Shown here in pieces: positions 2,316-35,284 of a DNA stretch of 54,136 nucleotides. Source of the DNA: Rhodospirillales bacterium (GTDB lineage Bacteria > Pseudomonadota > Alphaproteobacteria > UBA828); the NCBI GenBank assembly GCA_028820995.1, contig JAPPHR010000013.1, forward strand, positions 1 to 54,136, read 5' to 3'. Under the pieces are notes generated by a model. The model did not search any database, was not told where the DNA came from, and saw nothing but the letters and a program-made list of their open reading frames with translations. Position 1 is the first letter of the stretch. Each line of letters starts with the position of its first letter. The position numbers and the translations under genes were made by a program.

Positions 2316-2339
2316 CGTTCCGGCCTCCCGCTCTCTGCC

Positions 2340-5183: not shown

Positions 5184-5195
5184 AAGGCTGATCGG

Positions 5196-5672
5196 ATGGA
5201 CAACGAACGCAATATCGACGTCACCGTCAACGGCCGCTCTCACAGTGCGAATGTCCCGGCGCGGCGGCGGCTGTCCGAGTTCATTCGCGACGATCTGGGG
5301 CTCACCGGTACCCACGTCGGCTGCGAGCACGGCGTCTGCGGCACCTGCACCGTGCAACTCGATGGCGAGACGGTGCGCTCCTGCCTGATGTTCGCGGTTC
5401 AGGCGGACGGCGCCGAGATCATGACGGTGGAGGGGCTGGCGGACGGCGGTGCCCTGCATCCGATCCAGGAGGCCTTCTGGCAGGAGCACGGCCTGCAATG
5501 CGGCTTCTGTACCCCCGGCATCCTGATGACGGTCCACGAGTTTCTCCTGGAGAACAAGGGTCCGTTGGAAGAAGAGATCCGGCACGCGCTTTCCGGCAAC
5601 CTCTGCCGGTGCACCGGCTACCAGAACATCGTGAAGGCGGTCGAGACGGCTGACCGCCTGTGGGAGCGTTGA
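5196..5672 (+). CDS. (2Fe-2S)-binding small subunit (CoxS/CutS-like)
   Basis: 158 aa with two Cys clusters: GCEHGVCGTCTV and CGFCTPG...CRCTGY. Confidence 0.9.
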   Translation: MDNERNIDVTVNGRSHSANVPARRRLSEFIRDDLGLTGTHVGCEHGVCGTCTVQLDGETVRSCLMFAVQADGAEIMTVEGLADGGALHPIQEAFWQEHGLQCGFCTPGILMTVHEFLLENKGPLEEEIRHALSGNLCRCTGYQNIVKAVETADRLWER

Positions 5673-5673
5673 C

Positions 5674-8001
5674 ATGGGCGCAACAATGATCGGCGAGCGC
5701 GTCAAGCGCCTCGAGGACCCCCGCCTCCTCACCGGGGAGGGCGGGTTCGTCGACGACATACAGCTTCCCAACACCCTGCACGCGGCATTCCTGCGCAGCC
5801 CGCACGGCAATGCCCGTATCCGCGGGATCGATCTCTCGGCGGCACGCGCGGCGCCGGGCGTGGTGGACGCCTTCAGCCTGTCCGACGGCTGGCCCGACGC
5901 GCCGCCGACCATACCCGTGCTGGCGCCCGTCGACGGGCTGCTGCCGTGCCCGCAATACCTGCTGGCCCGCGACCAGGTGCGCTACGTGGGCGAGGCGGTG
6001 GCCGTGATCGTCGCGGAAAGCCGCGATCTCGCCGAGGACGCGATGGAGCTTGCCGAGGTCGACTACGAGCCGTTGCCTGCCATTGCGACCATGGAAAGCG
6101 GGATGGCCTCCGGCGCGGAGGTGCTGCACGACACCGTGCCCGACAACGTCGCCGTCCGCTGGACGCAGGGGATCGGCGACGTGGCGGAGGCCTTCGACGG
6201 CGCCGCTCACGTCGTCAGCGACACATTCAGGATGCAGCGCTACACCGGCGTGCCGATGGAGGGGCGCGGCACGCTCGCGACCCAGGACCCGGTGAACGGA
6301 GAGCTCACCGTCTGGACTTCCGGCCAGTGGCCGCACACCCAGCGCGCGCTGACCGCCGCACTGCTCGGCCTGGAGGAAAAGAGCATCCGCGTCATCCAGC
6401 CGGAGGTCGGCGGTGGCTTCGGGGTCAAGGTCGAGCTCTACCCGGAAGACGTCCTCATCCCGTTCGCGGCGCTTCGCGTCGGCCGACCGGTGAAGTGGAT
6501 CGAGGATCGGCGCGAGCACATGCTCACGGTCGTCCATGCCCGTGAGATGGATATAGACCTCTCGGTCGCGCTGGAGGCGGATGGAACCATTCGCGGCATG
6601 CGCTGCCGGCTTCTCAGCGATCAGGGCGGCTACTTCCGCACCCTCGGCACGGTCAATCCGTCGCTGGCGATAACCAGCGTGCCCGGCCCCTACCGGATCG
6701 AGAATTACGAGGGCGAGGTGGTGTGCGTGCTCACCAACAAGAGCCCGTCCTCGCCCTACCGCGGCGCCGGCGGGCCCGAGGCCGTGTTCGCGCGCGAGCG
6801 GCTGTTCGATATGGCGGCCCGCGAGATCGGCATGGACCCGGCCGCGTTTCGCGAGAAGAACATCTTGCCGGCCGATGCGATGCCTTACGACACCGGCCTC
6901 GTATCGGTGGAATCGACCGTGGTGTTCGATTCCGGCGACTTCCCTGCCGGGCTGCAGCGGGCGCTCGATGCCATCGACTACGCCGGTTTCCGGGCCGAGC
7001 AGGCGCGCGACCGGGAGCAGGGCAGGTTGCGCGGGCTCGGCATCTGCGTCTACACCCAGATGGCCTCCGTCGGCCCTTACGAGAGCGCCGAGGTGCGTGT
7101 CGACGGCGGCGGCAAGGTCGCGGTGGTGAGCGGCGCAGCACCCCAGGGCCAGGGCACGGGAACCGCATTGGCGCAGGTGGTGGCGGACCAGCTGGAGGTG
7201 CCGCTCGATCAGATCACCGTGACCTTCGCGGACACCGCGCGCATCCCCTTCGGCGTCGGCACCTATGCGAGCCGCAACGCGGTGATGGCGGGCTCGGCGA
7301 CTCTGGTGGCGTCCGAGCGCGTGCGCGACAAGGCGATTGCGGTGGCGGCCCATCTGCTCGAAGCCAGCGAGGCGGACGTCGAGTGGCACGAGGGAACGGC
7401 GCGGCTCAAGGGCGTCGCCGAGAAGAGCCACACGCTGGCGGAACTCGCCCAGGCGGCGGGGCCCGGCGGCAACCGGCCGGAGGGCATGGAGCCGGGGCTG
7501 GAGATTCGCCACTATTTTGAGACCCTGGATGCGCCCTTCGCCTTCGGCGTTCACATCGCAGAAGTGGAGGTCGAGCCGGAAACGGGGGACGTGGACATCA
7601 AACGTTACGTTGCGTTCAGCGACTGCGGCCGGCTGATCAACCCGATGATCGTCGAAGGGCAAATCGTGGGCGGCATCGCGCAAGGGGTGGGCGGCGCTCT
7701 GCTCGAAGAGCTGGTCTATGACGAGGACGGCCAGATGCTGAGCGCGAACCTCGCGGACTATCAGCTGCCGACCAGCCTCGACCTGCCGAACGTCGAGATC
7801 AGCCACGAGGAATCGCCGTCGCCCCTCAACCCGCTCGGCGCGAAGGGGATCGGCGAGGGCGGCGCGATCGCGGGCCACGCCGTGATCGCCAACGCTGTGG
7901 AAGACGCTATCGCCCACACCGGCGCACGGGTCCGCGAGACGCCGCTCAGACCGGCTGCGGTCTGGAAGCTGATGCAGGAGGCCGGCGCTGCTTCCTCTTA
8001 G
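5674..8001 (+). CDS. Molybdopterin-binding large subunit of a xanthine dehydrogenase-family hydroxylase
   Basis: 775 aa. IGERVKRLEDPRLLTGEGGFVDD N-terminus, internal SSPYRGAGGPE loop, C-terminal GAKGIGEGG. It starts 2 nt after the small-subunit stop. Confidence 0.9.
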   Translation: MGATMIGERVKRLEDPRLLTGEGGFVDDIQLPNTLHAAFLRSPHGNARIRGIDLSAARAAPGVVDAFSLSDGWPDAPPTIPVLAPVDGLLPCPQYLLARDQVRYVGEAVAVIVAESRDLAEDAMELAEVDYEPLPAIATMESGMASGAEVLHDTVPDNVAVRWTQGIGDVAEAFDGAAHVVSDTFRMQRYTGVPMEGRGTLATQDPVNGELTVWTSGQWPHTQRALTAALLGLEEKSIRVIQPEVGGGFGVKVELYPEDVLIPFAALRVGRPVKWIEDRREHMLTVVHAREMDIDLSVALEADGTIRGMRCRLLSDQGGYFRTLGTVNPSLAITSVPGPYRIENYEGEVVCVLTNKSPSSPYRGAGGPEAVFARERLFDMAAREIGMDPAAFREKNILPADAMPYDTGLVSVESTVVFDSGDFPAGLQRALDAIDYAGFRAEQARDREQGRLRGLGICVYTQMASVGPYESAEVRVDGGGKVAVVSGAAPQGQGTGTALAQVVADQLEVPLDQITVTFADTARIPFGVGTYASRNAVMAGSATLVASERVRDKAIAVAAHLLEASEADVEWHEGTARLKGVAEKSHTLAELAQAAGPGGNRPEGMEPGLEIRHYFETLDAPFAFGVHIAEVEVEPETGDVDIKRYVAFSDCGRLINPMIVEGQIVGGIAQGVGGALLEELVYDEDGQMLSANLADYQLPTSLDLPNVEISHEESPSPLNPLGAKGIGEGGAIAGHAVIANAVEDAIAHTGARVRETPLRPAAVWKLMQEAGAASS

Positions 8002-8909
8002 CCCACTCCACCTGTGGCTCTGGGCAAGCGAGCTCGGCGGTTCCGGTGCAGCTGGTAGCCGGAATGGCCGGCGAGTGTGACCAGGACCACGGTGCCGCCG
8101 ATCACGGTGAGTAGCGGCGGCTCCTCGTTCAGCACGATCCAGACCCAGAGCGGGCCGAGCACGGTCTCCAGCAGCGTGAGGAGAGCGACCTCGGGCGCCG
8201 GCAGATAGCGCGGCCCCAGCGTGATGAGCCCGAACGAGAGGGGCAGAACGACGAGCCCCATGGCGGCGACGTAGCCTGCGCTGCTCCAGGGGACCGAGAG
8301 AGGCGAGGCGACGGCGAGCACGGCGAGGCCGGCCACCAGGCTGCCGAGCGCCGTCGCGGGGATCAGATTGATCGCCCGGGCCGCGCGCAGGATCACGAAC
8401 ACGCCTGCCATCGTGATCGCGACCGAGACGGCGGCCAGGTCGCCCAGCAGCGTGCCGCGGCCGACGCCGTCCCACACGACGATGGCGATCCCGCACATTG
8501 AGAGAAAGATCACCAGCCAGAGCTCGAGGCTCACCCGCTCGCGCAGGAAGATCCAGGCCAGCAGCGCCGTGATGACCGGCGTGGTCGCCAGGATCACGAG
8601 CGTGTTCGCGACGCCCGTGTTCGAGATGGCGACGACGAAGAGAATGCCGTTGATGCCGAACAGGAAGGCCATGCCGAGCCCGGCCCAACCGATAGCGAGG
8701 AACACGCGGATCGTCCTGCGCCGGTAAACGACCGCGAGGCCGAGCATGAGCGCGAGGCCCAGCGACAGATCACGCCAGAAGGTGATCGTCCAGACGTCGA
8801 GGTCCGCGAGGCGAATCAGGAGCGTGTCCGGAGTCAGCACGATAACGCCGGTCCCGGTGATGATGAGCCCGCGTGTGTGCGTCGCCAAACCGCTCCAACG
8901 GAACATCAC
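7998..8909 (-). CDS. DMT-superfamily (EamA-like) transporter
   Basis: 303-aa hydrophobic ORF with about 10 predicted TM segments in a duplicated EamA-like pattern. Its 3' end overlaps the converging large-subunit gene by 4 nt. Confidence 0.85.
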   Translation of the reverse strand: MMFRWSGLATHTRGLIITGTGVIVLTPDTLLIRLADLDVWTITFWRDLSLGLALMLGLAVVYRRRTIRVFLAIGWAGLGMAFLFGINGILFVVAISNTGVANTLVILATTPVITALLAWIFLRERVSLELWLVIFLSMCGIAIVVWDGVGRGTLLGDLAAVSVAITMAGVFVILRAARAINLIPATALGSLVAGLAVLAVASPLSVPWSSAGYVAAMGLVVLPLSFGLITLGPRYLPAPEVALLTLLETVLGPLWVWIVLNEEPPLLTVIGGTVVLVTLAGHSGYQLHRNRRARLPRATGGVG

Positions 8910-9058
8910 GGTTACCCTCGCCGCCCCGGAGGTGGTTGCCGTCCCGGCGAATACTAGCCCGCATGGCGCGCCCGGGTTACCGCCTGCGCCGAGCGCCGAC
9001 CTTGTCGCCGGCTGGGGCGGACCCTTAGGATCGGCGCCGCAACGAGGGACGGAGCACC

Positions 9059-9814
9059 ATGAAGCTGGAAGGGAAAGTCGCGATCGTCACCGGCTCATCG
9101 CGCGGGATCGGCGCTTGCATCGCGCGGCGCTACGGGCGGGAGGGCGCCGCCGTCGCGGTGGTCGCGCGCGCGAAGCGGGACCGCGCCGACGCGGTGGTCA
9201 GCGAGATCGAGGCCGCCGGCGGCAAGGCGGCGGCGTTCATGGCCGATATCGGCGTTGTCGCGGAGTGCGAGCGCCTTGCGCAGGAGGTCATCGATGCCTT
9301 CGGCACGGTGGACATCCTGGTGAACAACGCCGGCATCTTCACGCCGCTGCCCATCGAGGAGGTCACCGAGGAGAACTGGGACGCCCAGCACGCCCTCAAT
9401 CTCAAGGGTGCGTTCTTCCTCACCAAGGCCGTCGTGCCCACCATGAAGGCCAGGGGCACCGGCAAGGTCGTCAACATCTCCTCCATCGCAGGCTGCGGCG
9501 GGTTCCCTAACTCCAGCGCCTACTGCGCGACCAAGGGCGGCCTCACCAACATGACCAAGGCGCTCTGCCTGGAGCTCGCGGGGGACGGCATCAACGTCAA
9601 CGCGCTCTCGCCCGGCAACATCCAGACGGACATGAACGCCGCCTTCCGCGCGGACGAGGCATACGACGCGCGCCAGGCAGAGCTGACGCCGGCCGGAATC
9701 GGCCACATGGACCCGGATCAACTCACCGGCGCCGCGGTCTTCCTCGCCAGCGCCGATTCGGACTCGGTCCACGGCGTGGACCTTCTGGTGGACAACGGCT
9801 GGGCCGCCTGGTAG
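9059..9814 (+). CDS. SDR-family oxidoreductase (FabG-like)
   Basis: VAIVTGSSRGIG cofactor motif, NNAG, and SSAYCATKGG (the YxxxK catalytic motif). Confidence 0.9.
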   Translation: MKLEGKVAIVTGSSRGIGACIARRYGREGAAVAVVARAKRDRADAVVSEIEAAGGKAAAFMADIGVVAECERLAQEVIDAFGTVDILVNNAGIFTPLPIEEVTEENWDAQHALNLKGAFFLTKAVVPTMKARGTGKVVNISSIAGCGGFPNSSAYCATKGGLTNMTKALCLELAGDGINVNALSPGNIQTDMNAAFRADEAYDARQAELTPAGIGHMDPDQLTGAAVFLASADSDSVHGVDLLVDNGWAAW

Positions 9815-9836: not shown

Positions 9837-10631
9837 ATGAGCGACATTCTCTACGAGGCGCACGGCCACGTGCGCCTGATCACCATCGACCGCGCCGCGA
9901 AGATGAACTCCCTCGACTTCGCGGCCAACGACAGGCTGATCGAGCGCTGGCGCGAATTCGCGGCGGACGACGCGGCGCGGGTCGCGGTCATCACCGGCGC
10001 GGGCGACAAGGCGTTCTGTGCCGGCGCCGACCTCAAGACCTACACCATGAACTATGCCGGCCGCCCTGCGCCCGAGTTCCGCACCCGCTTTACCGACGGG
10101 CCGGGCTTCGGCGGCATCACCCGCGGGCTCGAGATCCACAAGCCCATCGTCGCGGCGGTCAACGGCTACGCGATTTCCGGCGGGCTGGAGCTCGCCGAAG
10201 CCTGCGACATCCGCTTCTGCTCGCCCAACGCCGAGTTCGCGCATCAGGACGTGAACTGGGGCTTCCACCCGTGCGATGGCGGCTGCGTGCGCCTGCCGCA
10301 GATCGTGGGCCTCGGCAACGCCATGGAGATCATCCTCTCCGGCCGGCGTGTCGACGCAGAGCACGCGCTCCGCATCGGCCTCGTGAACCGCATCGTGCCC
10401 GCCGCAGACCTCGTGGCGGAGACCATGGACTTCGCCCAGCTCGTGGCGAGCCGGGCGCCGCTCGCCCAGCGCTTCGCTAAGGACGTGATGCTGCGCTCCT
10501 TCGATCTGCCGCTGGCGGACGCGCTCCGCCTCGAGTCCCGCTCGTTCTACGATCTCGGCGGCACGGAGGACCTCAAGGAGGGCACCGACGCCTTCCGCGA
10601 GAAACGAGCGGCCAGCTTCAAGGGCAGATAG
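9837..10631 (+). CDS. Enoyl-CoA hydratase/isomerase (crotonase) family protein
   Basis: 264 aa with ITGAGDKAFCAGADLK and AAVNGYAISGGLELAEACD oxyanion-hole motifs. Confidence 0.9.
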   Translation: MSDILYEAHGHVRLITIDRAAKMNSLDFAANDRLIERWREFAADDAARVAVITGAGDKAFCAGADLKTYTMNYAGRPAPEFRTRFTDGPGFGGITRGLEIHKPIVAAVNGYAISGGLELAEACDIRFCSPNAEFAHQDVNWGFHPCDGGCVRLPQIVGLGNAMEIILSGRRVDAEHALRIGLVNRIVPAADLVAETMDFAQLVASRAPLAQRFAKDVMLRSFDLPLADALRLESRSFYDLGGTEDLKEGTDAFREKRAASFKGR

Positions 10632-10885: not shown

Positions 10886-11878
10886 ATGGTGACGATGCTT
10901 CCCTGCATTCTCGTCTCCCACGACCCGCCGCCGGAGGCGCGCGCCGCCTACCGCCAGCAGCTCGACTCCCGATCCGAACTGGTTTTCAAACCCGATCTCT
11001 CGCCTGAGGGCTGGGTCGCCGCGCGGGCACAGGCGCGCGTGCTGATCGCCCTGAACCCCCGGATCGAGATCACGGCCGACGATGTCGCGGCGATGACGTC
11101 GCTCCGCTTCGTTCAGCTCCTGACCGCAGGCGTCGACCACGTGCCGCTGCATCTCTTCCCGCGCGACGTGCCCATCGCCTCGAACGCTGGCGCCTATGCC
11201 GGCCCGATGGCGGAGTTCGCGCTGGCCATCACGCTGGCTGCGGTCAAGCGCCTGCCGGTCGAGCACAGGGAGATGCGGGAAGGGCGGTTCAACCAGTTCG
11301 TCGACAACAAGACGCTCAAGGGAGCGGTATGCGCGATTCTCGGCTTCGGCGGCGCCGGGCGCGCTACAGCCCGGCTGTTCAGGGCGCTGGGTGCCGAGAT
11401 CCACGCCATCAACCGCAGCGGCGAGACCGATCAGGAGGTGGCGTTCGTCGGCACCCTGGCGGCGCTGGAAGATGTGCTCCGCCGCGCCGATGTCGTCGTC
11501 GTCTCGATGTCCCTGACCGGCGCGACGAAGGGGCTGATCGGCGCGCGCGAGCTCGGCTGGATGAAGGACGACGCGATCCTGCTCAATGTCGCGCGCGGCG
11601 AGATCGTCGACCAGGACGCGCTCTATCGCCACCTGGTCGAAAACCCGCGGTTCTTCGCGTGCCTTGAATCGTGGTGGATCGAGCCGGTGCGGCATGGCGT
11701 GTTCCGAATCGACCACCCGTTCCTCGACCTGCCCAATGTGATCGCCGCGCCGCATAATTCGGCGAGCGTGCCCGGCGCGCAGGTCGACGCGATGCGCCAG
11801 GGCGCGCGCAACGTCCGCCGATGGCTGGACGGCGAGCTCCCCCGGAACCTCTTGGGCGCGGACGAACGCGGCGCCTGA
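10886..11878 (+). CDS. D-isomer-specific 2-hydroxyacid dehydrogenase family protein
   Basis: ORF trimmed to ATG 10886 (MVTMLPCILVSH...). NAD fold ILGFGGAGRATARL, then NVARGEIVD and APHNSA typical of the family. Confidence 0.85.
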   Translation: MVTMLPCILVSHDPPPEARAAYRQQLDSRSELVFKPDLSPEGWVAARAQARVLIALNPRIEITADDVAAMTSLRFVQLLTAGVDHVPLHLFPRDVPIASNAGAYAGPMAEFALAITLAAVKRLPVEHREMREGRFNQFVDNKTLKGAVCAILGFGGAGRATARLFRALGAEIHAINRSGETDQEVAFVGTLAALEDVLRRADVVVVSMSLTGATKGLIGARELGWMKDDAILLNVARGEIVDQDALYRHLVENPRFFACLESWWIEPVRHGVFRIDHPFLDLPNVIAAPHNSASVPGAQVDAMRQGARNVRRWLDGELPRNLLGADERGA

Positions 11879-12118: not shown

Positions 12119-13840
12119 CTACTGGGCTGCGCCGCCGCCACGGATGAGTTGGCCCGGATGCGCACCCGTCGGTTCCCCGTCCCGCAGCGTGACGGCACCG
12201 TTGACGACCGTGGCGGCAAAGCCGTCCGCCTTTTGTACGAGCCTGCGGGCGCCACCGGGCAGGTCGCGTTGAACCGTGGGCAGGCGCGGCCGGACCGTCG
12301 TTTCGTCGAAGACCACGATGTCGGCTGTGAAGCCGGGGCGCAGCAGGCTCCGGTCGTGCATGTTCCATGCTGACGCATTGTCGAACGTCAGCATCCGTAC
12401 CGCTTCTTCCAGGGTAAACGCCTGCTTGGTGCGCACCCAGTAGCTCAGCAGGTGCGTCTGCAGCGATGAGCCCATCTCCTGGCACACGTGCGCGCCGGAG
12501 TCGGAAAAAGTGGCGAGAGTGCGGGGGCTCTTCAGCATCCGCCGAACCTCGTCCGGTGTCTCGTTCACCAGTGGCTGGACGAAGAGCAGGTCCTCGTTCT
12601 CCACCATCAGGTCGAGCATGACCTCGACAGGGTGCCGACCGGAGGTTTGCGCGAGATCCTGGATGCTGGGTTCGTCCCAGTTCACGTCGAACATCGGGAA
12701 CAGATTGGCGTAGTCGGGCTTCATCGGATTGGTCGTGGCAGCACCGCCGCCCTGGAACTCGGTGCTCCTCGGTTGCATCCGCGCTTCGGCCGCGACGAGG
12801 CGGGCGCGGATATCCGGGTCGCGGAAGCGGGCCTGCTGCTCGCAGGCGGAAAGGGCGCGGATGTCGCGCCAGGCCGGCAGGGCATCGAACGGCAGGTAGG
12901 ACTTGAGCGAGAAGATCGCGTTGATCGACCGCGTGGTGGCCTGGCCCAGCACCCGCCCTCCTTCGGCTGCGACCCGGTCCATCCACTCGAACTGATACTC
13001 CAGAGGATTGGGTCGATCGCCCTGGCGCGAAGCGAAGACTCCCAGCATCAGCGGCCGGCGGCTCGAAACGGCGATCCTGGTCAGCTCGTCCAGGCAGGCC
13101 CGCTGCGCCTCGCCGCCGGAGACGTCGGGCCCGACCTGAAAGATGCCGGCGTTCAGCGCGGCCATCGCGTCCACCAGATGCGCGATCTCCGCCCAGTTGG
13201 CGATGCGGCTCGCCACCGGGCCGCCGTCCGGGCGGATGTGGGTGGTGGCCCTGGACGTAGACAAGCCCACGGCGCCGGCGCGGAGCGCCTCCTGCACCAG
13301 GTCCGCCATGAGCTTGAGATCGTCCTCGCTGGCCTCCTCGTCCAGGGCGCGATCGCCCATCGCGTACATTCTGAGCGCCGAGTGGCCGATGTAGGCGGCG
13401 TAGTTGATGGCCTTGGGGAACGATTCGACGGCCGCGAGATACTCCGGGAACGTTTCCCAGCGCCAGTCGATTCCCGCTACCATGGCGTTCTTGGGGATGT
13501 CCTCCACGGCCTCCAGGCACTCCGCGAACCACTCTCTTGCCTCCGGCTTGCAGGGCGCCAGCGCGAACCCGCAATTGCCCATGACCACGCTGGTCACGCC
13601 GTGCCAGCAGGAGCACGTGCCTGCCGCATCCCACGCCACCTGCGCATCCATGTGGGTGTGGCCGTCGATGAAGCCGGGCGCGACGATCATGCCCTCGGCG
13701 TCGATCGTCTCGTCGGCGGGGCTGCGAATTCGGCCGATTTCCGCGATTCGGCCTTGGCTGACCCCGACATCCGCCCGGTAGCGGGGCATGCCGGAGCCGT
13801 CCACCAAGGTTCCGTTGCGGATCAGCAGATCGAACGTCAT
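12119..13840 (-). CDS. N-acyl-D-amino-acid deacylase (D-aminoacylase) family amidohydrolase
   Basis: 573 aa. MTFDLLIRNGTLVDGSG..., PGFIDGHTHMD (HxH metal site), VVMGNCGFALAPC (Cys metal ligand context). Confidence 0.9.
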   Translation of the reverse strand: MTFDLLIRNGTLVDGSGMPRYRADVGVSQGRIAEIGRIRSPADETIDAEGMIVAPGFIDGHTHMDAQVAWDAAGTCSCWHGVTSVVMGNCGFALAPCKPEAREWFAECLEAVEDIPKNAMVAGIDWRWETFPEYLAAVESFPKAINYAAYIGHSALRMYAMGDRALDEEASEDDLKLMADLVQEALRAGAVGLSTSRATTHIRPDGGPVASRIANWAEIAHLVDAMAALNAGIFQVGPDVSGGEAQRACLDELTRIAVSSRRPLMLGVFASRQGDRPNPLEYQFEWMDRVAAEGGRVLGQATTRSINAIFSLKSYLPFDALPAWRDIRALSACEQQARFRDPDIRARLVAAEARMQPRSTEFQGGGAATTNPMKPDYANLFPMFDVNWDEPSIQDLAQTSGRHPVEVMLDLMVENEDLLFVQPLVNETPDEVRRMLKSPRTLATFSDSGAHVCQEMGSSLQTHLLSYWVRTKQAFTLEEAVRMLTFDNASAWNMHDRSLLRPGFTADIVVFDETTVRPRLPTVQRDLPGGARRLVQKADGFAATVVNGAVTLRDGEPTGAHPGQLIRGGGAAQ

Positions 13841-13976
13841 CAGCCAATTCCCCGAGACGAAGTCAGCGATCGCCGCACGCTATCAGCCGAGAGGTTCGGC
13901 GACAACGCGCCGCCTTGCCCCGGGTCCGGCCCGCACCTATCGTGCGCGCCAAGCAGGACGAGGGGAGGGGGCCGGC

Positions 13977-14309
13977 GTGAGCGACGATCCGGGGCGCGGC
14001 TACCACGACATCGGTGGGCTGCCCGGCGGGCGCATCGAGCGGGCGGAGCACGCGCATGCGCTCTGGGAAATGCGGGTCGACGCCCTCATGGTGCTGCTCA
14101 CGCACCCGGAGCGGCGCGTCATCACCGTGGACGAGCTTCGCCGCGGCATCGAGCAGCTCGGTGCCGAGGCCTACGACGCCATGACCTACTACGAGCGCTG
14201 GATAGCCTCCGTTACCAACACCCTGCTGGGCAAGGGGGTCATCACGGCCGACGAGCTCGGCCGCCGCATGGCCGAGGTCGCGGCGCGCGACGGGGAGGGC
14301 GCCGGCTGA
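13977..14309 (+). CDS. Nitrile hydratase beta subunit, N-terminal half (separate polypeptide)
   Basis: GTG 13977 lies 6 nt after AGGGGAGGGG. GYHDIGGLPGG resembles the MDGIHDLGG start of NHase beta, followed by ...VDELRRGIEQLGAEAYDAMTYYERWIASVTNTLLGKGVIT. The start codon is the least certain part. Confidence 0.75.
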   Translation: MSDDPGRGYHDIGGLPGGRIERAEHAHALWEMRVDALMVLLTHPERRVITVDELRRGIEQLGAEAYDAMTYYERWIASVTNTLLGKGVITADELGRRMAEVAARDGEGAG

Positions 14310-14599
14310 TGGCCGCGCGCTTCGCCGTCGGCGACCGTGTGGCCGTGCGCCGCGCCTTCCCGCTCGGCCACATTCGCACGCCCTACTACGCGCGCGGGGC
14401 GGTGGGCGACGTAGAGCGCATCTGCGGCGCGTTCGGCAATCCCGAAGAGCTGGCCTTCGGCCGCCGCGACGGCCCCAAGCAGACTCTCTACCGGGTGCGC
14501 TTCGCCCAGACCGTCCTCTGGCCGGACTACGACGGACCGCCCGGCGATACCATCGACATCGAGCTCTACGAGCACTGGCTCGAGCCCGCGACGGAGTGA
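14309..14599 (+). CDS. Nitrile hydratase beta subunit, C-terminal (SH3-like) half (separate polypeptide)
   Basis: The ATG overlaps the preceding stop (TGATG), with GGGGAGGG 9 nt upstream. FAVGDRVAVRR..HIRTPYYARG..G..E...LYRVRF....LW......IDIELYEHWLEP matches the C-terminal beta-subunit fold pattern. Confidence 0.8.
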   Translation: MAARFAVGDRVAVRRAFPLGHIRTPYYARGAVGDVERICGAFGNPEELAFGRRDGPKQTLYRVRFAQTVLWPDYDGPPGDTIDIELYEHWLEPATE

Positions 14600-14602
14600 G
14601 CG

Positions 14603-15232
14603 ATGGCAACCGAGACCCACGACCACGCCCACGATCACCGGCCGCCGCCCGACGAGGACGGCCCGCTCACCTACTACCAGACCATGGAGATCGCCGTGCG
14701 CGAGCTCCTGATCGAGAAGGAGGTGTTCGGCGCCGACGACGTGCGCGCCGCGATCGAGACCATGGACGCCCGCAGCCCCGCGCGTGGCGCCGAGGTGGTG
14801 GCCCACGCCTGGACCGACCCGGCCTTCAAGGAGGCGCTGATGGCGGACGGCAGCGCGGCCTGCGCCAGCATGGGTATCGAGCTCGGGCCGCTGCGCCTCA
14901 TCGCCGTCGAGAACACGGAGACTGTGCACAACGTCATCGTCTGCACGCTCTGCTCCTGCTATCCGCGCAACCTGCTGGGAATCCCGCCCGACTGGTACAA
15001 GGCAAAGGCCTACCGCGCGCGGGTGGTGCGCGAGCCCCGCGCGGTCTTGCGCGAGTTCGGCACCGAGATCCCCGGCGACGTGGCCGTGCGGGTGCACGAT
15101 TCCACCGCCGACATGCGCTATATTGTCGTGCCCCGGCGGCCCGCCGGCACCGAGGGCTGGGAGCGCGAGCGCCTGGCCGCTCTCGTGACCCGCGATTGCA
15201 TGATCGGCGTGACGGTTCCGAAGACCCCCTGA
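14603..15232 (+). CDS. Nitrile hydratase alpha subunit, Co-type metal claw
   Basis: 209 aa with VCTLCSCYPRNLLGIPPDWYK (the CTLCSC claw; Thr and Tyr are the cobalt-type variants). Starts 4 nt after the preceding stop. N-terminus is His-rich (THDHAHDH). Confidence 0.9.
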   Translation: MATETHDHAHDHRPPPDEDGPLTYYQTMEIAVRELLIEKEVFGADDVRAAIETMDARSPARGAEVVAHAWTDPAFKEALMADGSAACASMGIELGPLRLIAVENTETVHNVIVCTLCSCYPRNLLGIPPDWYKAKAYRARVVREPRAVLREFGTEIPGDVAVRVHDSTADMRYIVVPRRPAGTEGWERERLAALVTRDCMIGVTVPKTP

Positions 15233-15271
15233 TGCCGGGCGGCCCTACGTTGAGAAGGATCGATCTGGACC

Positions 15272-16948
15272 ATGCATGATCTCGTGATTCGCGGCGCGAT
15301 GGTGGCCGATGGCGTCGGCAATCCGCTTATCCGCGCCGATGTTGCGGTCAAGGACGAGCACATCGCCGAGGTCGGCGACGTGACGGAGAGCGCGCGGGAG
15401 ACGGTGGACGCCGACGGCCTCGTTCTGGCGCCCGGCATCGTCGACGTGCACACCCACTACGACGCCCAGCTCACGTGGGACAGCCAGGCGACGCCGTCCC
15501 CCTCGCTCGGCGTCACCACGGTCGTCATGGGCAACTGCGGCTTCAGCATCGCGCCGTGCCCGCCCGACCGGCGCGAGCAGATGGCCCGCAACCTGGCCGA
15601 GGTCGAGGGCATGCCCGTCGCCGCGCTCGAAGCCGGCATCGACTGGAGCTTCGAGAGCTTCCCGGAGTATTTGGCGCTGCTCAGGCGCAAGGGGTGCTAT
15701 CTCAACGCCGGTGTCTTCGTCGGCCACTCGGCGGTACGCACCACGGTGCTTGGCGCCGAGGCCTCGGACCGGGCTGCGACCGGGGACGAGATCGCCACCA
15801 TGCGCGGGATCGTGACGGAGGCGGTGGAGGCCGGCGCCATCGGTTTCGCCACCTCCACGTCGATCAACCACTACGGCGACGGCGGTGTGCCGATGCCCTC
15901 CCGGCTCGCGGAAGACGACGAGATGCGTGCCCTGGTGGGCGTGCTGGGCGAGCTCGGCCGCGGCATCTTCCAGCTCACCGTCGGCCCCAGCATGACGAAC
16001 GAACGGTTGGAGGGACTGGCTGCCCAGACCGGCCGGCCGGTGTTCATGACGGCAGCACTCCACAACGAGACCTTCCCGGACCGTGCCATCGGCATGCTCG
16101 AGGGCGCCGCAGCCGCGCAAAGCCGCGGCAACGCGGTGTGGGCGCAGGTCTCGTGCCAGCCGCTCAGCATGGACTTCTCCATGCGGACCGCCTTCCCGCT
16201 CCAGAGCCTCGATGCCTGGGAGCCGCTGCACACCGCGTCGGACGATGAGTTCCTGGCGATCATCGGGAGCGAGGACTTCCGCAACCGCTTTCGCGACGAG
16301 CTGGAGAAGCCGCAGAGCGGCAAGATCTTCTACGGCGACTGGCGACGGGTCGAGGTGGCGATGGCGACGACGCCGGCGCACCGGGCGCTCGAAGGCGAGA
16401 CCATCGAGACCATTGCCGGGCGCGAAGGCCGCGACCCGGTGGACGTGATGTTCGACCTCGCCGTGGACGAGAGGCTTGGCACGACTTTCAACGCCGCCCT
16501 GCTCAATGCGGACGAGGCGGCGGTCGAGGGCCTGCTGCGCCACGACGCAGGCCTCATCAGCCTCTCCGATGCCGGCGCCCACCTCTGCTACCTCTGCGAT
16601 GCCGGCTACGGCCTGCACCTGCTCGGGCACTGGGTCCGCGACAAGGGCTTGTTCGATCTGGAGGACGGCATCCGCCGCATCACCAGCATGCCGGCGCAGC
16701 TCTACGGCATCCCTGATCGCGGCGAGATCGCCCCCGGAAAGTTCGCGGACCTGTTGCTCTTCGACCCGGCGACGGTCGGACGGGGTGCAATCAGACGTGT
16801 CGACGACCTGCCCGGTGGCGAAAGCCGCCTGGTGCGCGACGCCAGCGGTGTGCACGGCGTCTGGGTCAACGGCACGGGCATCTACGACGGAGACGGCTAC
16901 CGCGAGGTCCCGCCCCCCGGCCACGTGCTCGACCGCTTCGCGCGCTAG
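15272..16948 (+). CDS. N-acyl-D-amino-acid deacylase family amidohydrolase (second paralogue)
   Basis: 558 aa. MHDLVIRGAMVADGVG..., PGIVDVHTHYD, VVMGNCGFSIAPC. Starts 39 nt downstream of the NHase alpha stop on the same strand. Confidence 0.9.
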   Translation: MHDLVIRGAMVADGVGNPLIRADVAVKDEHIAEVGDVTESARETVDADGLVLAPGIVDVHTHYDAQLTWDSQATPSPSLGVTTVVMGNCGFSIAPCPPDRREQMARNLAEVEGMPVAALEAGIDWSFESFPEYLALLRRKGCYLNAGVFVGHSAVRTTVLGAEASDRAATGDEIATMRGIVTEAVEAGAIGFATSTSINHYGDGGVPMPSRLAEDDEMRALVGVLGELGRGIFQLTVGPSMTNERLEGLAAQTGRPVFMTAALHNETFPDRAIGMLEGAAAAQSRGNAVWAQVSCQPLSMDFSMRTAFPLQSLDAWEPLHTASDDEFLAIIGSEDFRNRFRDELEKPQSGKIFYGDWRRVEVAMATTPAHRALEGETIETIAGREGRDPVDVMFDLAVDERLGTTFNAALLNADEAAVEGLLRHDAGLISLSDAGAHLCYLCDAGYGLHLLGHWVRDKGLFDLEDGIRRITSMPAQLYGIPDRGEIAPGKFADLLLFDPATVGRGAIRRVDDLPGGESRLVRDASGVHGVWVNGTGIYDGDGYREVPPPGHVLDRFAR

Positions 16949-18351
16949 CGGGGCGCTTCGAGCCCGAGTTCGCGCCAGATCCAGGCCGTGTCGTAGGGCT
17001 TCTCACCCTGTTGCGCGGCGCGGTGGTGCTCCGTGTTCTCCATCTGCTTGAGCCAGTCGATTGCCTGTGCGCGGCCCTCCGGCGTCGCCGCGGCCTGCCG
17101 CGGGGTCTTGCCGTCCAGTATGGGGAGCGGCTCGTCCAGGGTGCGGCGGAAATGCTCGTCGAAGTAGGCATGGATGATCCGCGCCGCCTCCTCGGGCGGA
17201 ATTCCGAGTTCGTCGTCCGGCTGCTCCGCGTGCTCCGCCATCGCCTGTTCCGGATCCCGATGGGAGATCAGCGGGCTCCCCACGAGATCGCCCAGACGGG
17301 ACGCCAGAAGGTCCCGCCCCCGCTCGGCCCGTTTCTGCGAATTGACGGTGAGAACCAGCGCACCGCTCTGCAACGCTGCGTCACCGAGCGACGTCATGCG
17401 GATGGTGTCCTCTGCTTCGGCCGCCGGAGGGTCTCCGCCATCCCCATCCATCCGGTGGAACGGCGAGCCCGGTGCCAGCCAGGCCCAGTGCGCCTCGTCG
17501 CCCTCCACCCTCTCGAACGCCTCGATCCCGTCGAGCACCGCGGCCAGCCTCGCCTCGTCTCCCGCGATCGGGAAGCGCACCTCGCAGAAGACGATCGCCT
17601 CGTCGTCACTGTTGCGAAACTCCGGCGGGGGAGCCTGCATCCGCATGACCGTGTCGACCGTCCAGTGTTCCGAGAATATCGGTGCGCACGGCAGACCCCG
17701 AACGATATATCGCCGCACCGTTTCCAGCTCCAGCGGCAGATCCTCCGAGCCCTCTTCGGCCTCCTCACGCAACTTCTCGATCATCCGATTCGCCAACTCG
17801 TCGAACGCCGACAGGAGCTCCTGCGACGCTTCGTGGCGAAACCGCAGAATGCCGCCCGTGAAGACCTCTTTTCCGTTCACGGTGACGATGCGCGCCGCTA
17901 CGCGGTCCCAGCGCGCCAGTGACTTCGAGCCGAGCTTCTCGTTTACCGTCACCGCCTCCCCGCCCAGGATCAGGTCGCGCACCGTCACGCTCCGGCCCGG
18001 ATCGATGTCGACGATCTCGTAGAGAGACACATGGGAATCCCTCAGCGCCTCCAGGTAGCGCCTGGCGGAGACGGTCTCGCGCCATCCGCGCCGCTTGAGA
18101 TAGTCGTCGATCAGGTTCAGCTCGTCCTCTTCGCCGAAGCGGGCGGCAAAGAAATCCTCGGTGATGAAGAAGTGCAGCATGACAGCGCTGTCGCCGAGAA
18201 GGGCGGCGATCTCATCCCCGGACATGTCCACGATGTCGGCGACGGGTTCGATGTGGGTCGCGTAGATCTCCGCGTGCGGTTCTTCCCATTCCTCCCTTGC
18301 CGCCCACTTGACGAGGTTCTCTTTCGCCTTGTCGACGCCGGGAATACGCAT
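16945..18351 (-). CDS. Hypothetical protein (468 aa); no domain recognised with confidence
   Basis: ORF trimmed to ATG 18351 (MRIPGVDKAKENLVKW...). It is acidic and has coding-like composition. The C-terminal LPILDGKTPRQAAATPEGRAQAIDWLKQMEN loosely resembles the LGGxTPxxxxxTxxGxxxVxxxL motif of Xre/MbcA/ParS-type (DUF2384-like) domains. Confidence 0.7.
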   Translation of the reverse strand: MRIPGVDKAKENLVKWAAREEWEEPHAEIYATHIEPVADIVDMSGDEIAALLGDSAVMLHFFITEDFFAARFGEEDELNLIDDYLKRRGWRETVSARRYLEALRDSHVSLYEIVDIDPGRSVTVRDLILGGEAVTVNEKLGSKSLARWDRVAARIVTVNGKEVFTGGILRFRHEASQELLSAFDELANRMIEKLREEAEEGSEDLPLELETVRRYIVRGLPCAPIFSEHWTVDTVMRMQAPPPEFRNSDDEAIVFCEVRFPIAGDEARLAAVLDGIEAFERVEGDEAHWAWLAPGSPFHRMDGDGGDPPAAEAEDTIRMTSLGDAALQSGALVLTVNSQKRAERGRDLLASRLGDLVGSPLISHRDPEQAMAEHAEQPDDELGIPPEEAARIIHAYFDEHFRRTLDEPLPILDGKTPRQAAATPEGRAQAIDWLKQMENTEHHRAAQQGEKPYDTAWIWRELGLEAPR

Positions 18352-18453
18352 GGAACGATCGCCTGCAGGGTCCGTTGCCGCTACGTCCCAAGGTAGTCGC
18401 GATGACCCGGCGCCACAACGCGGGGGCACGCGCGCTGCCGCCGCCCGCGCCGG

Positions 18454-19419
18454 CTACTGATCGGCGCCGGGGCGGGGGCCCACCGGGGTGGGCGTGGCGT
18501 CGCTGATGAACGGGCGCTCCGCTCGGGATGCGATGGCGGGCTCGGACTCGCTGCCCTCCTCCACCCTGACCCGGACATCGAGCCGGGACTCCCCGCCGCC
18601 GAAAACCGCACCCCTGGTCGGCGCGGCATCGGCGTAGTCACGACCCAAGGCGACGCGCACGTGGCGGTGGTCGGCGAGGGTGTCGTTGGTGGGGTCGATG
18701 CCGAGCCAGCCGAGATCGGGGAGGAGGAACTCCGCCCAGGCGTGGCTGGCTCCCTCGGGTGTCTGCTCGCCGGGCGCGCCTTCGCGATGGATGTAGCCAG
18801 ACACGTAGCGGCTCGGGATGCCCCACGAACGCGCAATGGCGATCATCACGTGGGTGTAGTCCTGGCAGACCCCGCTGCCGGTTTCCAGGATGCGCTCGAT
18901 CGGCGAATCGACCGCCGTGCTGCCCGGCTCGTAGCGGAAGGCGTCGTGCAGCGCGCGGCCCAGCTCCAGAAGGGAGGAGAGAGGATCGTCGCCGCGCCGC
19001 AGTCCCTTGGCCTCGGTGAAGTCTGCGAGCGCCGGGCTCGGCCGCGCGAAGCGGCTGGGCGCCAGAAACTCCCAATGGCGGAGAGGAAGCACGGCCTCGG
19101 CCAGCGCGCCCCAGGCGTCTTTCTCCATGCGGTCCGGCAAGTCCGGCGCGGGCGCGGTCTCGACGTCTGCCTGCGAGCGCACGGCGGTATGCTCGTGCGC
19201 GCGATGGATGTTGAACAGATGGCAGGCGTTGCCGAAGCAGTCTTCGAAGGAAATCGGGGCTGCGGCGGGATCGATCTGGAGCGTGAAGGCGGCGACCTGC
19301 TGCCCGCCGTCCTCGCGCGGGTGGAGGCGCAGCACCATCAGGCTGCCCTGCGCCGGCTCCTGGTAGCGAAAGTCCGACAGGTGCTCGACCAGGAACCGCC
19401 GCGGCGTGTCTCCGCTCAC
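18454..19419 (-). CDS. Transglutaminase-family protein (Bact_transglu_N plus transglutaminase core)
   Basis: 321 aa. SGVCQDYTHVMIAIARSWGIPSRYVSGY (catalytic Cys), ASHAWAEF (His), GIDPTN (Asp). The GTG start overlaps the upstream stop (GTGA). Confidence 0.9.
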   Translation of the reverse strand: MSGDTPRRFLVEHLSDFRYQEPAQGSLMVLRLHPREDGGQQVAAFTLQIDPAAAPISFEDCFGNACHLFNIHRAHEHTAVRSQADVETAPAPDLPDRMEKDAWGALAEAVLPLRHWEFLAPSRFARPSPALADFTEAKGLRRGDDPLSSLLELGRALHDAFRYEPGSTAVDSPIERILETGSGVCQDYTHVMIAIARSWGIPSRYVSGYIHREGAPGEQTPEGASHAWAEFLLPDLGWLGIDPTNDTLADHRHVRVALGRDYADAAPTRGAVFGGGESRLDVRVRVEEGSESEPAIASRAERPFISDATPTPVGPRPGADQ

Positions 19420-20390
19420 GGCGCGTCCTCGATCTCGTAGTTGAAGTAGGCGGCCGCGATGTCATCGTGCAGCTGGCGGCAGGAGGCGCCCAAATCCTGG
19501 AGCGCCGATCGTGTGGCGTCGTCGTCCTCGGGATCGCGATCCGGCCAGTCGAGGTCGATGCTGGCGACCATCCGACCGGCGCGGCGCTCCGCCTCGATCC
19601 GGAGCGGGGGGCCGGCGGCGACGGCGTCGAGCGCCTCCACGATGCGCCCCAGCGCGTGTCGGATCGAGTGCGACAGCGAGGGGTCGGCGACCAGGAAGTC
19701 GACCATGCTGGTCGGGCGAAGCCCTTGGGAGTAGAGGCGGCGGTACGCGAAATGCGCCTCGCAGATCCAGAGCAGGGAGAGCCAGTCCGCGTCGTCGTCC
19801 GGGGCGGCCGTTGGAAACAGCGCGATGTGTGCGTCCATCAGGGCGGCAACGGATTGCAGCCGTTCGACAAAGCGCCCGAGCTGGAGGAAGTGCCAGCCGT
19901 CGTCACGGTAGATCGTGCCTTCGGCGACGCCCGAGACCGTGCGGATGGCGCCCATGGTTCGGTCGTAGAAGGTGCCTGGCCGGTCGTTCCAGATGGTCTC
20001 CATCTCGACATCGCGCAGATCGATGTATGCGAGGTTGAGGGAGGACCACATCTTGTCGGGGATGACGTTCCGGACCTGCCGGGCGCTCTCGCGCGCCGCC
20101 GCAACACAGTTGCGGATCGCGTTGGGGTTGGTCGGCTCGAAGGTCAGATCGTCGGCCAACGTGTAGGCGTCGGCCAGCATGAAGTCTTCGTCGTCGGGGG
20201 GCGGATCCAGATGACCGCCCAGCGGCGTGCGGCCGGCGGCCCTGAAGAGGCGCCGCCAGCTCTGGTCGATCTGCTCGATCGGCCGATCCTCGATGATGAT
20301 GAACTGCTCCGCCAGCAGGTGGCAGCCGTGCTGGGCGCGCTCGAGGTAGCGGCCCATCCAGTAGAGGCCCTGGGCGTTGCGGGACAGCAT
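19416..20390 (-). CDS. Alpha-E domain protein (DUF403 type)
   Basis: MLSRNAQGLYWMGRYLERAQH is the hallmark alpha-E N-terminus. 324 aa, placed between the CP ATP-grasp and transglutaminase genes. Confidence 0.9.
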   Translation of the reverse strand: MLSRNAQGLYWMGRYLERAQHGCHLLAEQFIIIEDRPIEQIDQSWRRLFRAAGRTPLGGHLDPPPDDEDFMLADAYTLADDLTFEPTNPNAIRNCVAAARESARQVRNVIPDKMWSSLNLAYIDLRDVEMETIWNDRPGTFYDRTMGAIRTVSGVAEGTIYRDDGWHFLQLGRFVERLQSVAALMDAHIALFPTAAPDDDADWLSLLWICEAHFAYRRLYSQGLRPTSMVDFLVADPSLSHSIRHALGRIVEALDAVAAGPPLRIEAERRAGRMVASIDLDWPDRDPEDDDATRSALQDLGASCRQLHDDIAAAYFNYEIEDAP

Positions 20391-20394
20391 GCGG

Positions 20395-21894
20395 CTAGTC
20401 GGAGAGCACCCAGAGGTCCTTGCCGCCGCCGCCCTGGCTCGAATTGACGACGAGCGAGCCCTCCACCAGGGCGACTCGGCAGAAGGCGCCGGGGACGAGG
20501 CGGGTCTCGTTGCCGCGCAGCACGAAGGGTCTGAGGTCTACATGGCGCGGGCCTGCGCCGGACGGCGTGAGACAGGGCGAAACCGAAAGGTCGAGCACGG
20601 GCTGGGAGACGTAGTTGTCCGGGTTCCTCCGCAGCTCCTCGGCATAGGCCGCGCGCTCTTCGGGAGTGGCGTGGGGGCCGACGAGCATTCCGTATCCGCC
20701 CGATTCGCCGACCATCTTGACCACGAGCTTTTCCAGGTTGTCGAGCGTGTACTCCAGCCCCTCCGGATCGCGGCAGAGACGGGTATCGACATTGGAGAGC
20801 AGCGGCTCCTCGCTCAGATAGTAGCGGATCATGTCGGGCACGTAGACGTAGACGCTCTTGTCGTCGGCGACGCCGGTGCCGGGCGCGTTGGCGATGGTCA
20901 CGTTTCCGAGCCGATAGGCGTAGAAGAGTCCCGGGGTGCCGAGCTGCGAATCGGGACGGAACGCCAGCGGATCGATGAAGTCGTCGTCGATGCGGCGGTA
21001 GATCACGTCCACCTTCTTGAGCCCTGCGGTTGTGCGCATGTAGACGAAGCCGTTGTGGACCAGCAGGTCGCTGCCCTGCACCAGCTCCACGCCCATCTCC
21101 TGAGCAAGGAACATGTGCTCGTAGAAGGCGGAATTGTAGACGCCGGGCGTCAGCAGGACGATGCAGGGATCGGAGACTCCCGGCGGCGCAAGCTCGGTCA
21201 ACGTCTGGCGCAGCAGCCGGCCGTAGTGATCGATGCCGCGCACGTGGTGGCGGCGGAAGAGGTTGCGCAGGCTCGTCTTCAGCGCCCGCCGGTTGGCGAG
21301 CATGTACGAGACCCCGGAGGGCACCCGCAGATTGTCTTCCAGCACCATGAAGCCGTCGTTGGTGCGCACGATGTCGGTGCCGCAGAGCGCGACGTAGACG
21401 CCGTGGGGCACGTCCACGCCCCGCATCTCGACCCGGTATTGCGGGCAGCCGCGCACCAGATCCACGGGCACGACTCCGTCTTCGAGGATCCGCCCTGGTC
21501 CGTAGACGTCGGCCAGGAAGCGGTTGAGCGCCTCCAGCCGCTGTCGCAGGCCCCGCTCGACCAGGTCCCAGTCGGCGGCGTCGACGAGCCTCGGCAGGAA
21601 GTCGATGGGGATGATCCGCTCCTGCGCGCCCTCTTCGCCGTACACCGCGAAGGTGATCCCCTGATGCAGGAAGGAGCGCTCGGCATATTCCTGCATGGCG
21701 GCGATTTCGGCGGGGCGCATCGCGTCGAGCGCCTGGCAGAGCTCCCGGCAGTGGGCGCGCGGCACGCCGGTGGCCTCGAACATCTCGTCGTAGAAGGCCG
21801 GGCGAGTCTCGTACGCGGCAAAGAGGCGCTGCGCCGCGTTTGCGGGGCCGTCGCCGTCGGCTTCCGATTGCTTGCCGCGCGATTCGCGACTCAT
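20395..21894 (-). CDS. Circularly permuted ATP-grasp (type 2) protein
   Basis: 499 aa. The sequence pattern (GITFAVYG...ERIIPIDFLPR..., ...NAPGTGVADDKSVYVYVPDMIRYYL...) is typical of the DUF404/DUF407 CP_ATPgrasp family. It is the first gene of the triad. Confidence 0.9.
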   Translation of the reverse strand: MSRESRGKQSEADGDGPANAAQRLFAAYETRPAFYDEMFEATGVPRAHCRELCQALDAMRPAEIAAMQEYAERSFLHQGITFAVYGEEGAQERIIPIDFLPRLVDAADWDLVERGLRQRLEALNRFLADVYGPGRILEDGVVPVDLVRGCPQYRVEMRGVDVPHGVYVALCGTDIVRTNDGFMVLEDNLRVPSGVSYMLANRRALKTSLRNLFRRHHVRGIDHYGRLLRQTLTELAPPGVSDPCIVLLTPGVYNSAFYEHMFLAQEMGVELVQGSDLLVHNGFVYMRTTAGLKKVDVIYRRIDDDFIDPLAFRPDSQLGTPGLFYAYRLGNVTIANAPGTGVADDKSVYVYVPDMIRYYLSEEPLLSNVDTRLCRDPEGLEYTLDNLEKLVVKMVGESGGYGMLVGPHATPEERAAYAEELRRNPDNYVSQPVLDLSVSPCLTPSGAGPRHVDLRPFVLRGNETRLVPGAFCRVALVEGSLVVNSSQGGGGKDLWVLSD

Positions 21895-34892: not shown

Positions 34893-34914
34893 GGGCGGAG
34901 CGGGAGGAACGGCG

Positions 34915-35229: not shown

Positions 35230-35230
35230 A

Positions 35231-35255: not shown

Positions 35256-35284
35256 GACAGGCCGCGACCGCGGCCCGCCGCGAA

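Follow-up and report, generated by a model that had tools for sequence, protein, structure and literature searches.

The window analysed here is a 54,136-nucleotide (nt) stretch, positions 1 to 54,136 of contig JAPPHR010000013.1, from a Rhodospirillales bacterium (GenBank assembly GCA_028820995.1). It contains a compact block of genes for a predicted cobalt-type nitrile hydratase (NHase) in which the beta subunit is divided between two genes, bN and bC, followed by the gene for the alpha subunit and, on the same strand, by a gene for an amidohydrolase, AH2. A paralogue of AH2, here called AH1, is transcribed divergently. An earlier examination of the same DNA, hereafter the sequence-only reading, had described the arrangement as a three-subunit hydratase coupled to two amidohydrolases. 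An independent gene call on the source contig, an ENA metagenome scaffold, re-found the same five genes (lengths in amino acids, aa):

12119-13840, minus strand: AH1, paralogue of AH2, divergently transcribed (573 aa; PF07969)
13841-13976, no strand: intergenic spacer separating the divergent AH1 and bN, presumed to be a promoter region (136 nt)
13977-14309, plus strand: bN, N-terminal half of the NHase beta subunit (110 aa; GTG start, stop codon TGA at 14307-14309)
14309-14599, plus strand: bC, C-terminal SH3-like half of the NHase beta subunit (96 aa; ATG start)
14603-15232, plus strand: NHase alpha subunit (209 aa; claw VCTLCSCY at residues 113-120, followed by PR)
15272-16948, plus strand: AH2, amidohydrolase with a predicted D-aminoacylase fold (558 aa; 39 nt 3' of alpha; PF07969)

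The ATG of bC at 14309 shares one base with the stop codon of bN (TGATG). bN is preceded by GGGGAGGGGG at 13961-13970, and bC has a ribosome-binding site of its own, GGGGAGGG at 14292-14299, 9 nt 5' of its start. The genes for bN, bC, and alpha are translationally coupled, presumably so that the subunits come out equimolar. No terminator-like site was seen within the NHase-AH2 block, including the gap between alpha and AH2, and AH2 is probably co-transcribed with the NHase genes. The 13841-13976 region gave neither a sigma-70-like site nor an Rfam match, and no riboswitch, promoter, or terminator signal around the operon rose above chance. The gene starts, the overlap, the ribosome-binding sites, the claw, and the 39-nt and 136-nt spacings described in the sequence-only reading all hold.

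Family assignment of the nitrile hydratase

The proteins bN and bC match different parts of the NHase beta subunit. The sole beta domain matched by bN in Pfam is the N-terminal one (PF21006 NHase_beta_N, E 9e-19), and in NCBIfam bN aligns with positions 2-100 of the 226 in TIGR03888, matching no model other than beta. The sole beta domain matched by bC is the C-terminal one (PF02211 NHase_beta_C, E 8e-22), with coverage of positions 136-226 of the same 226-position NCBIfam model. Together the two proteins provide complementary coverage of both NHase beta domains. Alignments with 3QXE_B, the 219-aa beta subunit of the Pseudomonas putida cobalt-type NHase (Co-NHase), agree: bN pairs with residues 3-94, conserving DELRRGIEQ and TYYERW, and bC with residues 129-219, conserving GHIR...RG. 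The earlier description of the two as halves of one subunit is thereby confirmed. In NHases, conserved Arg and Tyr residues of the beta subunit contact the claw and position its oxidised cysteines. Among the beta residues that can be aligned with those of classical NHases, Leu replaces Phe, and the Arg, Tyr-Tyr, and Trp are retained.

The alpha subunit matches PF02979 with an E-value of 9e-79. Against TIGR01323, the NHase alpha equivalog model, it scores 253.1 bits, barely above the cut-off of 249.85, while against TIGR03887, the model for the gamma subunit of thiocyanate hydrolase (SCNase), it scores 216.3 bits, well below the cut-off of 291.45. Comparison with PDB chains gives 200-216 bits for Co-NHase alphas and 188 bits for SCNase gamma. 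Identification of the enzyme as a thiocyanate hydrolase was rejected on the grounds of the sub-threshold TIGR03887 score. A claw that includes Thr and Tyr, as in VCTLCSCY, is a marker of the Co-type, and from this motif we infer, in agreement with the sequence-only reading, that the NHase uses cobalt, with the claw binding Co(III). No member of the NHase accessory, CobW-type, or cobalt-transporter families was found among the genes within ~10 kb or among the other scanned open reading frames (ORFs) of the window. A candidate second NHase at 34557-35994 (ORFs of 111, 104, and 253 aa) was rejected: the two shorter ORFs encode Rieske and BolA proteins, and Pfam offers no match for the 253-aa one.

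The split beta subunit and its characterised precedents

A scan with the alpha subunit, taking one genome per species, yielded 80 loci. In the closest of these (L002, L003, L005-L011, and L013; alphas 83-92% identical), bN and bC lie in different reading frames; L004, which begins inside bC, was left out of this judgement. The hosts of the closest split loci are all uncultured Alphaproteobacteria or Rhodospirillales metagenome-assembled genomes. The split beta, again in different frames and in independent assemblies, is also present in every locus in which the NHase is linked to AH2, and the one-base TGATG overlap is retained in the gene calls of L082, L083, L087, and L089. These observations bear on the idea that an ordinary alpha-beta NHase has here been disrupted, by a frameshift peculiar to one strain or by faulty assembly. 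A true fusion of the two halves does exist, namely P0244 (202 aa, 62% identical to bC), which indicates that split and fused forms interconvert, with the split form dominating around the window enzyme. However, the comparative conservation of the split refutes an artefact, the bC gene has its own ribosome-binding site, and the same architecture is active in Streptomyces canus, so that we give a frameshift practically no credence. The sequence-only reading, which had argued against a recent frameshift, was right on this point.

Nor is the split unusual: it is the majority form among the relatives of this enzyme. Among the 80 nearest alpha relatives, ~70 carry a split beta, arranged in one of two gene orders, and only seven have a classical fused beta 3' of alpha. 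When 1.84 billion cluster representatives were searched exhaustively with bC, 1449 relatives came back; of the best 150, 125 fall below 190 aa, and no more than a handful, at ~200 aa, are fused betas. The split beta is a stable, selected, and old feature, and the commonest form among the relatives of the enzyme.

The first of the two orders, N-half, C-half, alpha, is that of the window. In the second, permuted order, the C-half is followed by alpha and then by the N-half, and the ORF upstream of alpha, at most 124-166 aa from stop to stop, is too short for a full-length beta. The permuted order is seen in L023, L024, L026, L030, L038, L042, L050, L053, and ~18 more (locus coordinates ~7600-9000), in hosts that include Rhizobium grahamii CCGE 502, Methylocystis, Reyranella, Verrucomicrobiota, and Planctomycetota. 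In such loci, the N-half lying 3' of alpha could easily be taken for an 'activator'. A further natural fusion from the search of cluster representatives, P0258 (310 aa), joins a bC-like to an alpha-like domain. The latter has VSSLGGSY in place of the cysteine claw, and P0258 is presumably unable to bind metal via such a claw. In an alignment of 90 alphas, the residue that follows the claw (CSCYP-x) is Arg in nearly all split-beta alphas and Lys in two loci, while fused-beta alphas have Trp, Phe, or Ile at this position, and one Streptomyces group has Leu. The corresponding site in the window is 14954-14959 (alpha residues 118-119). Post-claw Arg may thus serve as a sequence marker of the three-subunit type.

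The closest characterised precedent is ScNHase from Streptomyces canus CGMCC 13662, whose subunits AnhD (10.4 kDa, N-half), AnhE (11.4 kDa, C-half), and AnhA (21.3 kDa) are encoded in that order (PMC7329996). The enzyme, which has been purified and characterised, contains cobalt and lacks an activator gene, and AnhD doubles as a metal and self-subunit-swapping chaperone (PMC7329996). ScNHase was characterised on neonicotinoid N-cyanoimines, and no linked amidohydrolase was reported (PMC7329996). The window NHase resembles it in gene order, in its close subunit sizes (110, 96, and 209 aa), in its predicted cobalt type, and in having no detected activator, and differs in that ScNHase is an actinomycete enzyme. 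Streptomyces loci of the same layout (L029 and L035) encode alphas 55-59% identical to that of the window, their orthology to AnhDEA being assumed. The split architecture was already known, and the earlier list of split-beta enzymes (ScnBAC and ToyJKL) omitted its closest member, AnhD/AnhE/AnhA.

Of the two enzymes on that list, ToyJKL, the toyocamycin NHase of Streptomyces rimosus, is described in PMC7329996 as a three-subunit Co-NHase with two small subunits in place of beta, its alpha alone being reported there as sufficient for catalysis. ToyJKL sits in a deazapurine nucleoside biosynthetic cluster, unlike the window NHase; no QueC/D/E-type or GTP cyclohydrolase gene was found among the scanned ORFs of the window. 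The Thiobacillus thioparus SCNase ScnB/ScnA/ScnC (2DD4) has a split beta and the same gene order as the window, as the sequence-only reading pointed out. Against 2DD4, bN matches chain B (E 2e-7), bC chain A (E 7e-12), and alpha chain C (188 bits), but the window alpha is no nearer to SCNase than to ordinary Co-NHases, missing the cut-off for SCNase gamma and passing that for NHase alpha. In the classical NHase-amidase operons of Rhodococcus, Pseudomonas chlororaphis B23, and others, a hydratase and an adjoining amide hydrolase convert nitrile to amide and then to acid (reviewed in PMC7193024). The hydrolase in these operons is an amidase-signature enzyme (PF01425), the beta subunit is encoded by a single gene, and an activator is present, whereas the window has a partner of the Amidohydro_3 fold, a split beta, and no detected activator.

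AH2 and AH1 as neighbours of the hydratase

AH2 lies directly 3' of alpha in all ten close loci long enough to show it, and the arrangement is seen in L002-L011, L082, L083, L087-L093, L101, L103, and L104. A lookup that started from AH2 sampled six protein clusters at 65-74% identity, and five of them have bN-bC-alpha immediately 5'. In the sampled loci from this lookup (among L082, L083, and L087-L093), alpha and AH2 are separated by 16-20 nt, or overlap by 4 nt in the case of L087. The identities of the NHase and of AH2 to their window counterparts drop in step (61-92% and 65-95%, respectively), with alpha/AH2 pairs of 75/74, 68/70, and 61-65/65-67%. In a neighbour-joining tree of the alphas from 90 loci, those linked to AH2 group together in one clade, interrupted only by L064, which is nested within it. 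When same-strand adjacency of NHase and AH2 was tested as the signature of a two-step operon, it was found inside this clade and was absent outside it. AH2 is a genuine operon partner of the NHase, in a link confined to one lineage. No paper in the literature library searched combines 'nitrile hydratase' and 'D-aminoacylase', in line with the sequence-only reading, to which no characterised example of the pairing was known, and the pairing of an NHase with an Amidohydro_3 enzyme instead of an amidase-signature enzyme appears to be undescribed.

The case of AH1 is different. It adjoins the NHase only in the window, in L002 and L003 (divergently), and in L004 (in tandem after AH2), and is not found within 8 kb in L005-L011, that is, in seven of the ten closest loci able to show it. 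Its orthologues P0164, P0197, and P0206 (74-86% identity) occur in unrelated contexts with no NHase. AH1 is not a conserved partner, and its place next to the NHase in a few genomes is a matter of chance. The claim of coupling to two amidohydrolases therefore stands for AH2, as a conserved and probably co-transcribed neighbour within one lineage, and falls for AH1. Of the five-gene neighbourhood, the NHase-AH2 block is the part conserved within the clade; the linkage to AH1 is not kept, and AH2 orthologues with no NHase exist.

AH1 and AH2 both belong to PF07969 Amidohydro_3 (E 6e-33) and are 36% identical to each other. Their best solved relative by sequence is the D-aminoacylase of Alcaligenes faecalis DA1 (1M7J/1RJP). 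An AlphaFold model of AH2 (mean pLDDT 82.9, pTM 0.86) has as its best Foldseek matches PpOngB, D-aminoacylase, N-acyl-D-Glu deacylase, and the Klebsiella D-acylase, with target-normalised TM-scores of 0.73-0.77 to 1M7J, 3GIP, 9G5M, and 9KB1. Features shared with 1M7J and 3GIP (Bb3285) are the N-terminal beta-sandwich, the HxH motif, the GNCG Cys, the strand-8 Asp, and the C-terminal domain, although AH1 and AH2 are 70-90 residues longer. H60 and H62 (HxH), C89 (GNCG), and D433 (SD(A)GAH) are invariant in 23 members of the AH1/AH2 family, as are C96, H152, H200, H437, and H449.

Alignment to D-aminoacylase is confined, even with a family profile, to ~195 N-terminal and 110-180 C-terminal residues; the central ~240 residues of AH1 and AH2 have no detectable sequence similarity to it. 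Of phmmer, the family profile, and pairwise alignment, none aligned the central region of AH2 reliably, and the mapping of metal ligands is therefore based on the absence of motifs and on predicted strands. In D-aminoacylase, Cys96, His220, and His250 (1M7J numbering) form the tight (beta) zinc site. The motifs ATHMRDE and SHHK, which occupy the His220 and His250 positions in the 1M7J sequence, are absent from AH1 and AH2; the fragment 186-286 of 1M7J has no similarity to the AH1/AH2 family profile; and in the AH2 model the predicted barrel strands 232-236 and 257-262 end in Thr and Ala. Arg377 of 1M7J, which follows the strand-8 Asp and binds the substrate alpha-carboxylate, appears to correspond to Ala/Asp in AH2 (SDAGAHLCYLCDAGYG versus SDGLPHDERPHPRLWG in a phmmer alignment that is weak in this loop, with the model of low confidence at 434-436). 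Lacking conserved beta-site histidines, AH1 and AH2 are unlikely to be ordinary N-acyl-D-amino-acid deacylases, and they constitute a branch of their own within the D-aminoacylase fold, one whose metal site may be non-canonical. The assignment to the N-acyl-D-amino-acid deacylase family made in the sequence-only reading is thus upheld for the fold, the HxH, and the GNCG, and doubtful as a functional label. The database name 'N-acyl-D-aspartate/D-glutamate deacylase' is not to be trusted.

Flanking genes, proposed route and alternatives

The genes on either side of the operon bear on how the pairing arose. The following features of the window were identified from Pfam matches:

9059-9814, plus strand: SDR, upstream gene syntenic with the NHase-AH2 block
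9837-10631, plus strand: enoyl-CoA hydratase/crotonase (ECH), upstream gene syntenic with the NHase-AH2 block
10895-11878, plus strand: 2-hydroxyacid dehydrogenase, insertion between ECH and AH1
26759-28330, plus strand: PF01425 amidase
42226-43572, minus strand: PF01425 amidase

ECH lies directly 5' of bN in L005, L009, L010, L011, and L013, and SDR-ECH lies upstream in L083, L084, L089, and L092. The intervening 2-hydroxyacid dehydrogenase is unmatched in L002-L013 at a threshold of 45% identity. Every AH2-linked locus is flanked by SDR-ECH upstream or by Mem_trans-GcvP downstream, a shared synteny that identifies these loci as variants of one ancestral locus. SDR (20 metagenome loci) and ECH (7) are also the genes that turn up most often beside distant AH2-like genes, frequently as SDR-AH2-ECH. 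A three-gene cluster of SDR, an AH2-like gene (~51-53% identity), and ECH recurs on the metagenome contigs L124, L157, L158, L173, and L175 (coordinates ~2000-6000). The SDR-AH2-ECH cluster hints at an older, non-nitrile pathway for the AH2 family.

Free-living relatives have, between SDR-ECH and the NHase, a gene for QueF (preQ0 nitrile reductase family) and one for a short transporter of the Vut_1/YhhQ type (L083 2496-3496; L089 1446-2445; L092 2613-3612). After these come an amidase-signature gene in the opposite orientation, an alpha/beta hydrolase gene, and a PhyH dioxygenase gene. On the other side of the window operon, the minus-strand genes at 16945-21894 begin with a DUF7986 gene that converges on AH2 with a 4-nt overlap with the AH2 stop codon, and continue with a trio encoding transglutaminase-like, Alpha-E, and circularly-permuted ATP-grasp proteins. 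The trio, and not DUF7986, is syntenic beside the operon in most close relatives. Further upstream, at 4603-8001 on the plus strand, lies a xanthine dehydrogenase/CO dehydrogenase-type trio (FAD_binding_5, 2Fe-2S, and molybdopterin-binding subunits), followed by an EamA transporter gene on the opposite strand.

We propose that bN, bC, and alpha assemble into a Co(III) hydratase of the (alpha-betaN-betaC)2 type. The Cys-Thr-Leu-Cys-Ser-Cys claw of alpha would bind Co(III), its oxidised cysteines being kept in position by conserved Arg and Tyr from the beta halves, and bN may double as a cobalt and subunit-swapping chaperone by analogy with AnhD. The enzyme would hydrate a neutral, probably uncharged, nitrile to its amide; where the pocket residues can be aligned, they are like those of classical NHases. 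The amino-acid-like or N-acylated substrate suggested by the sequence-only reading finds no support, the same beta residues looking like those of a classical NHase. AH2, made from the same transcript, would most likely hydrolyse the amide to the acid and ammonia, replacing the amidase-signature enzyme of classical NHase operons, and a nitrile to amide to acid route is plausible. As to its origin, the simplest history is one in which the NHase cassette of three genes joined an older SDR/ECH/AH2 neighbourhood in one uncultured alphaproteobacterial lineage and was later lost in some members. The NHase part of this proposal is well supported by sequence comparison, and we infer the AH2 step from gene linkage. 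To the reading as a whole, a three-subunit Co-NHase with co-transcribed AH2 as its amide hydrolase, we assign a probability of roughly 0.55. More tentatively, AH2 and its relatives might represent an undescribed branch of the D-aminoacylase fold that was recruited as an NHase partner, possibly together with SDR and ECH, in a new assimilation pathway for a natural nitrile.

Several observations weigh against the proposed role of AH2. L064 has the NHase and no AH2. In the sixth AH2 cluster (L084-L086) and in the metagenome loci L099, L100, and L102, where AH2 is 64-66% identical, no NHase precedes it, although the locus is the same. None of ~70 AH2-like genes at 49-59% identity has an NHase nearby, and the other three-subunit NHases (L012-L081) have no AH homologue within 8 kb. 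No shared amidase or other recurrent partner was found beside these non-AH2 enzymes, whose neighbours are unrelated genes. The adjacency of NHase and AH2 could also stem in part from shared descent rather than from selection. As for the chemistry, no His is invariant between residues 201 and 436 in the AH1/AH2 family, and the missing beta-site histidines leave the reaction of AH2 uncertain; nor do we know of any member of this subgroup of the D-aminoacylase fold that hydrolyses primary amides.

These points feed the strongest competing explanation, in which the NHase is functional and AH2 is a mere syntenic neighbour: the NHase genes would be a mobile cassette, gained and lost, the two enzymes would act on unrelated substrates, and the amide would be handled by an amidase-signature enzyme encoded elsewhere. 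This is a possibility to be taken seriously, if a less probable one than an operon partnership. It would account for the fact that close AH2 orthologues differ in whether they have an NHase at precisely this site, and that the more distant AH2-like genes are accompanied by SDR and ECH but in no case by an NHase. Candidate amidases are also at hand, with a PF01425 gene two to three genes upstream in the free-living relatives and two more in the window (26759-28330 and 42226-43572). The window amidases, however, are not orthologous to the NHase-side amidase of L083 (26-35% identity). Every NHase-positive locus has tight or overlapping same-strand spacing between alpha and AH2, the NHase stays directly before AH2 while the genes on either side change, and the two diverge in step, all of which favours the partnership of NHase and AH2 over simple synteny.

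A substrate other than a nitrile proper is also conceivable in vivo, namely thiocyanate, as for ScnBAC, an isonitrile, or a 7-cyano-7-deazapurine such as preQ0, as suggested by ToyJKL, but we consider this improbable. In favour of thiocyanate are the gene order and the 216 bits that alpha scores on the SCNase gamma model; against it, that score is far short of the 291-bit cut-off, the NHase alpha model is matched above its own cut-off, and the PDB scores favour Co-NHases. The preQ0 variant draws on the genes for QueF and the Vut_1/YhhQ-type transporter, which in L083, L089, and L092 precede the NHase by 3-4 kb. These two genes, however, persist in the NHase-less L084-L086 and are absent from the window and its close clade, and no deazapurine biosynthesis genes lie nearby. 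A preQ0 or 7-deazapurine substrate was accordingly set aside, the presence of QueF and Vut_1 being independent of that of the NHase and probably a coincidence of synteny.

The natural substrates and physiological roles of most NHases are unknown, and the three-subunit enzymes have barely been studied. The NHase of the window belongs to a known and characterised type, and its pairing with AH2 is a variant of the NHase-amidase theme in one lineage of uncultured bacteria. If the pairing were only a matter of synteny, the locus would be one more member of a known enzyme type. As a four-gene unit that can be expressed and screened, NHase-AH2 could otherwise reveal new amide hydrolase chemistry.

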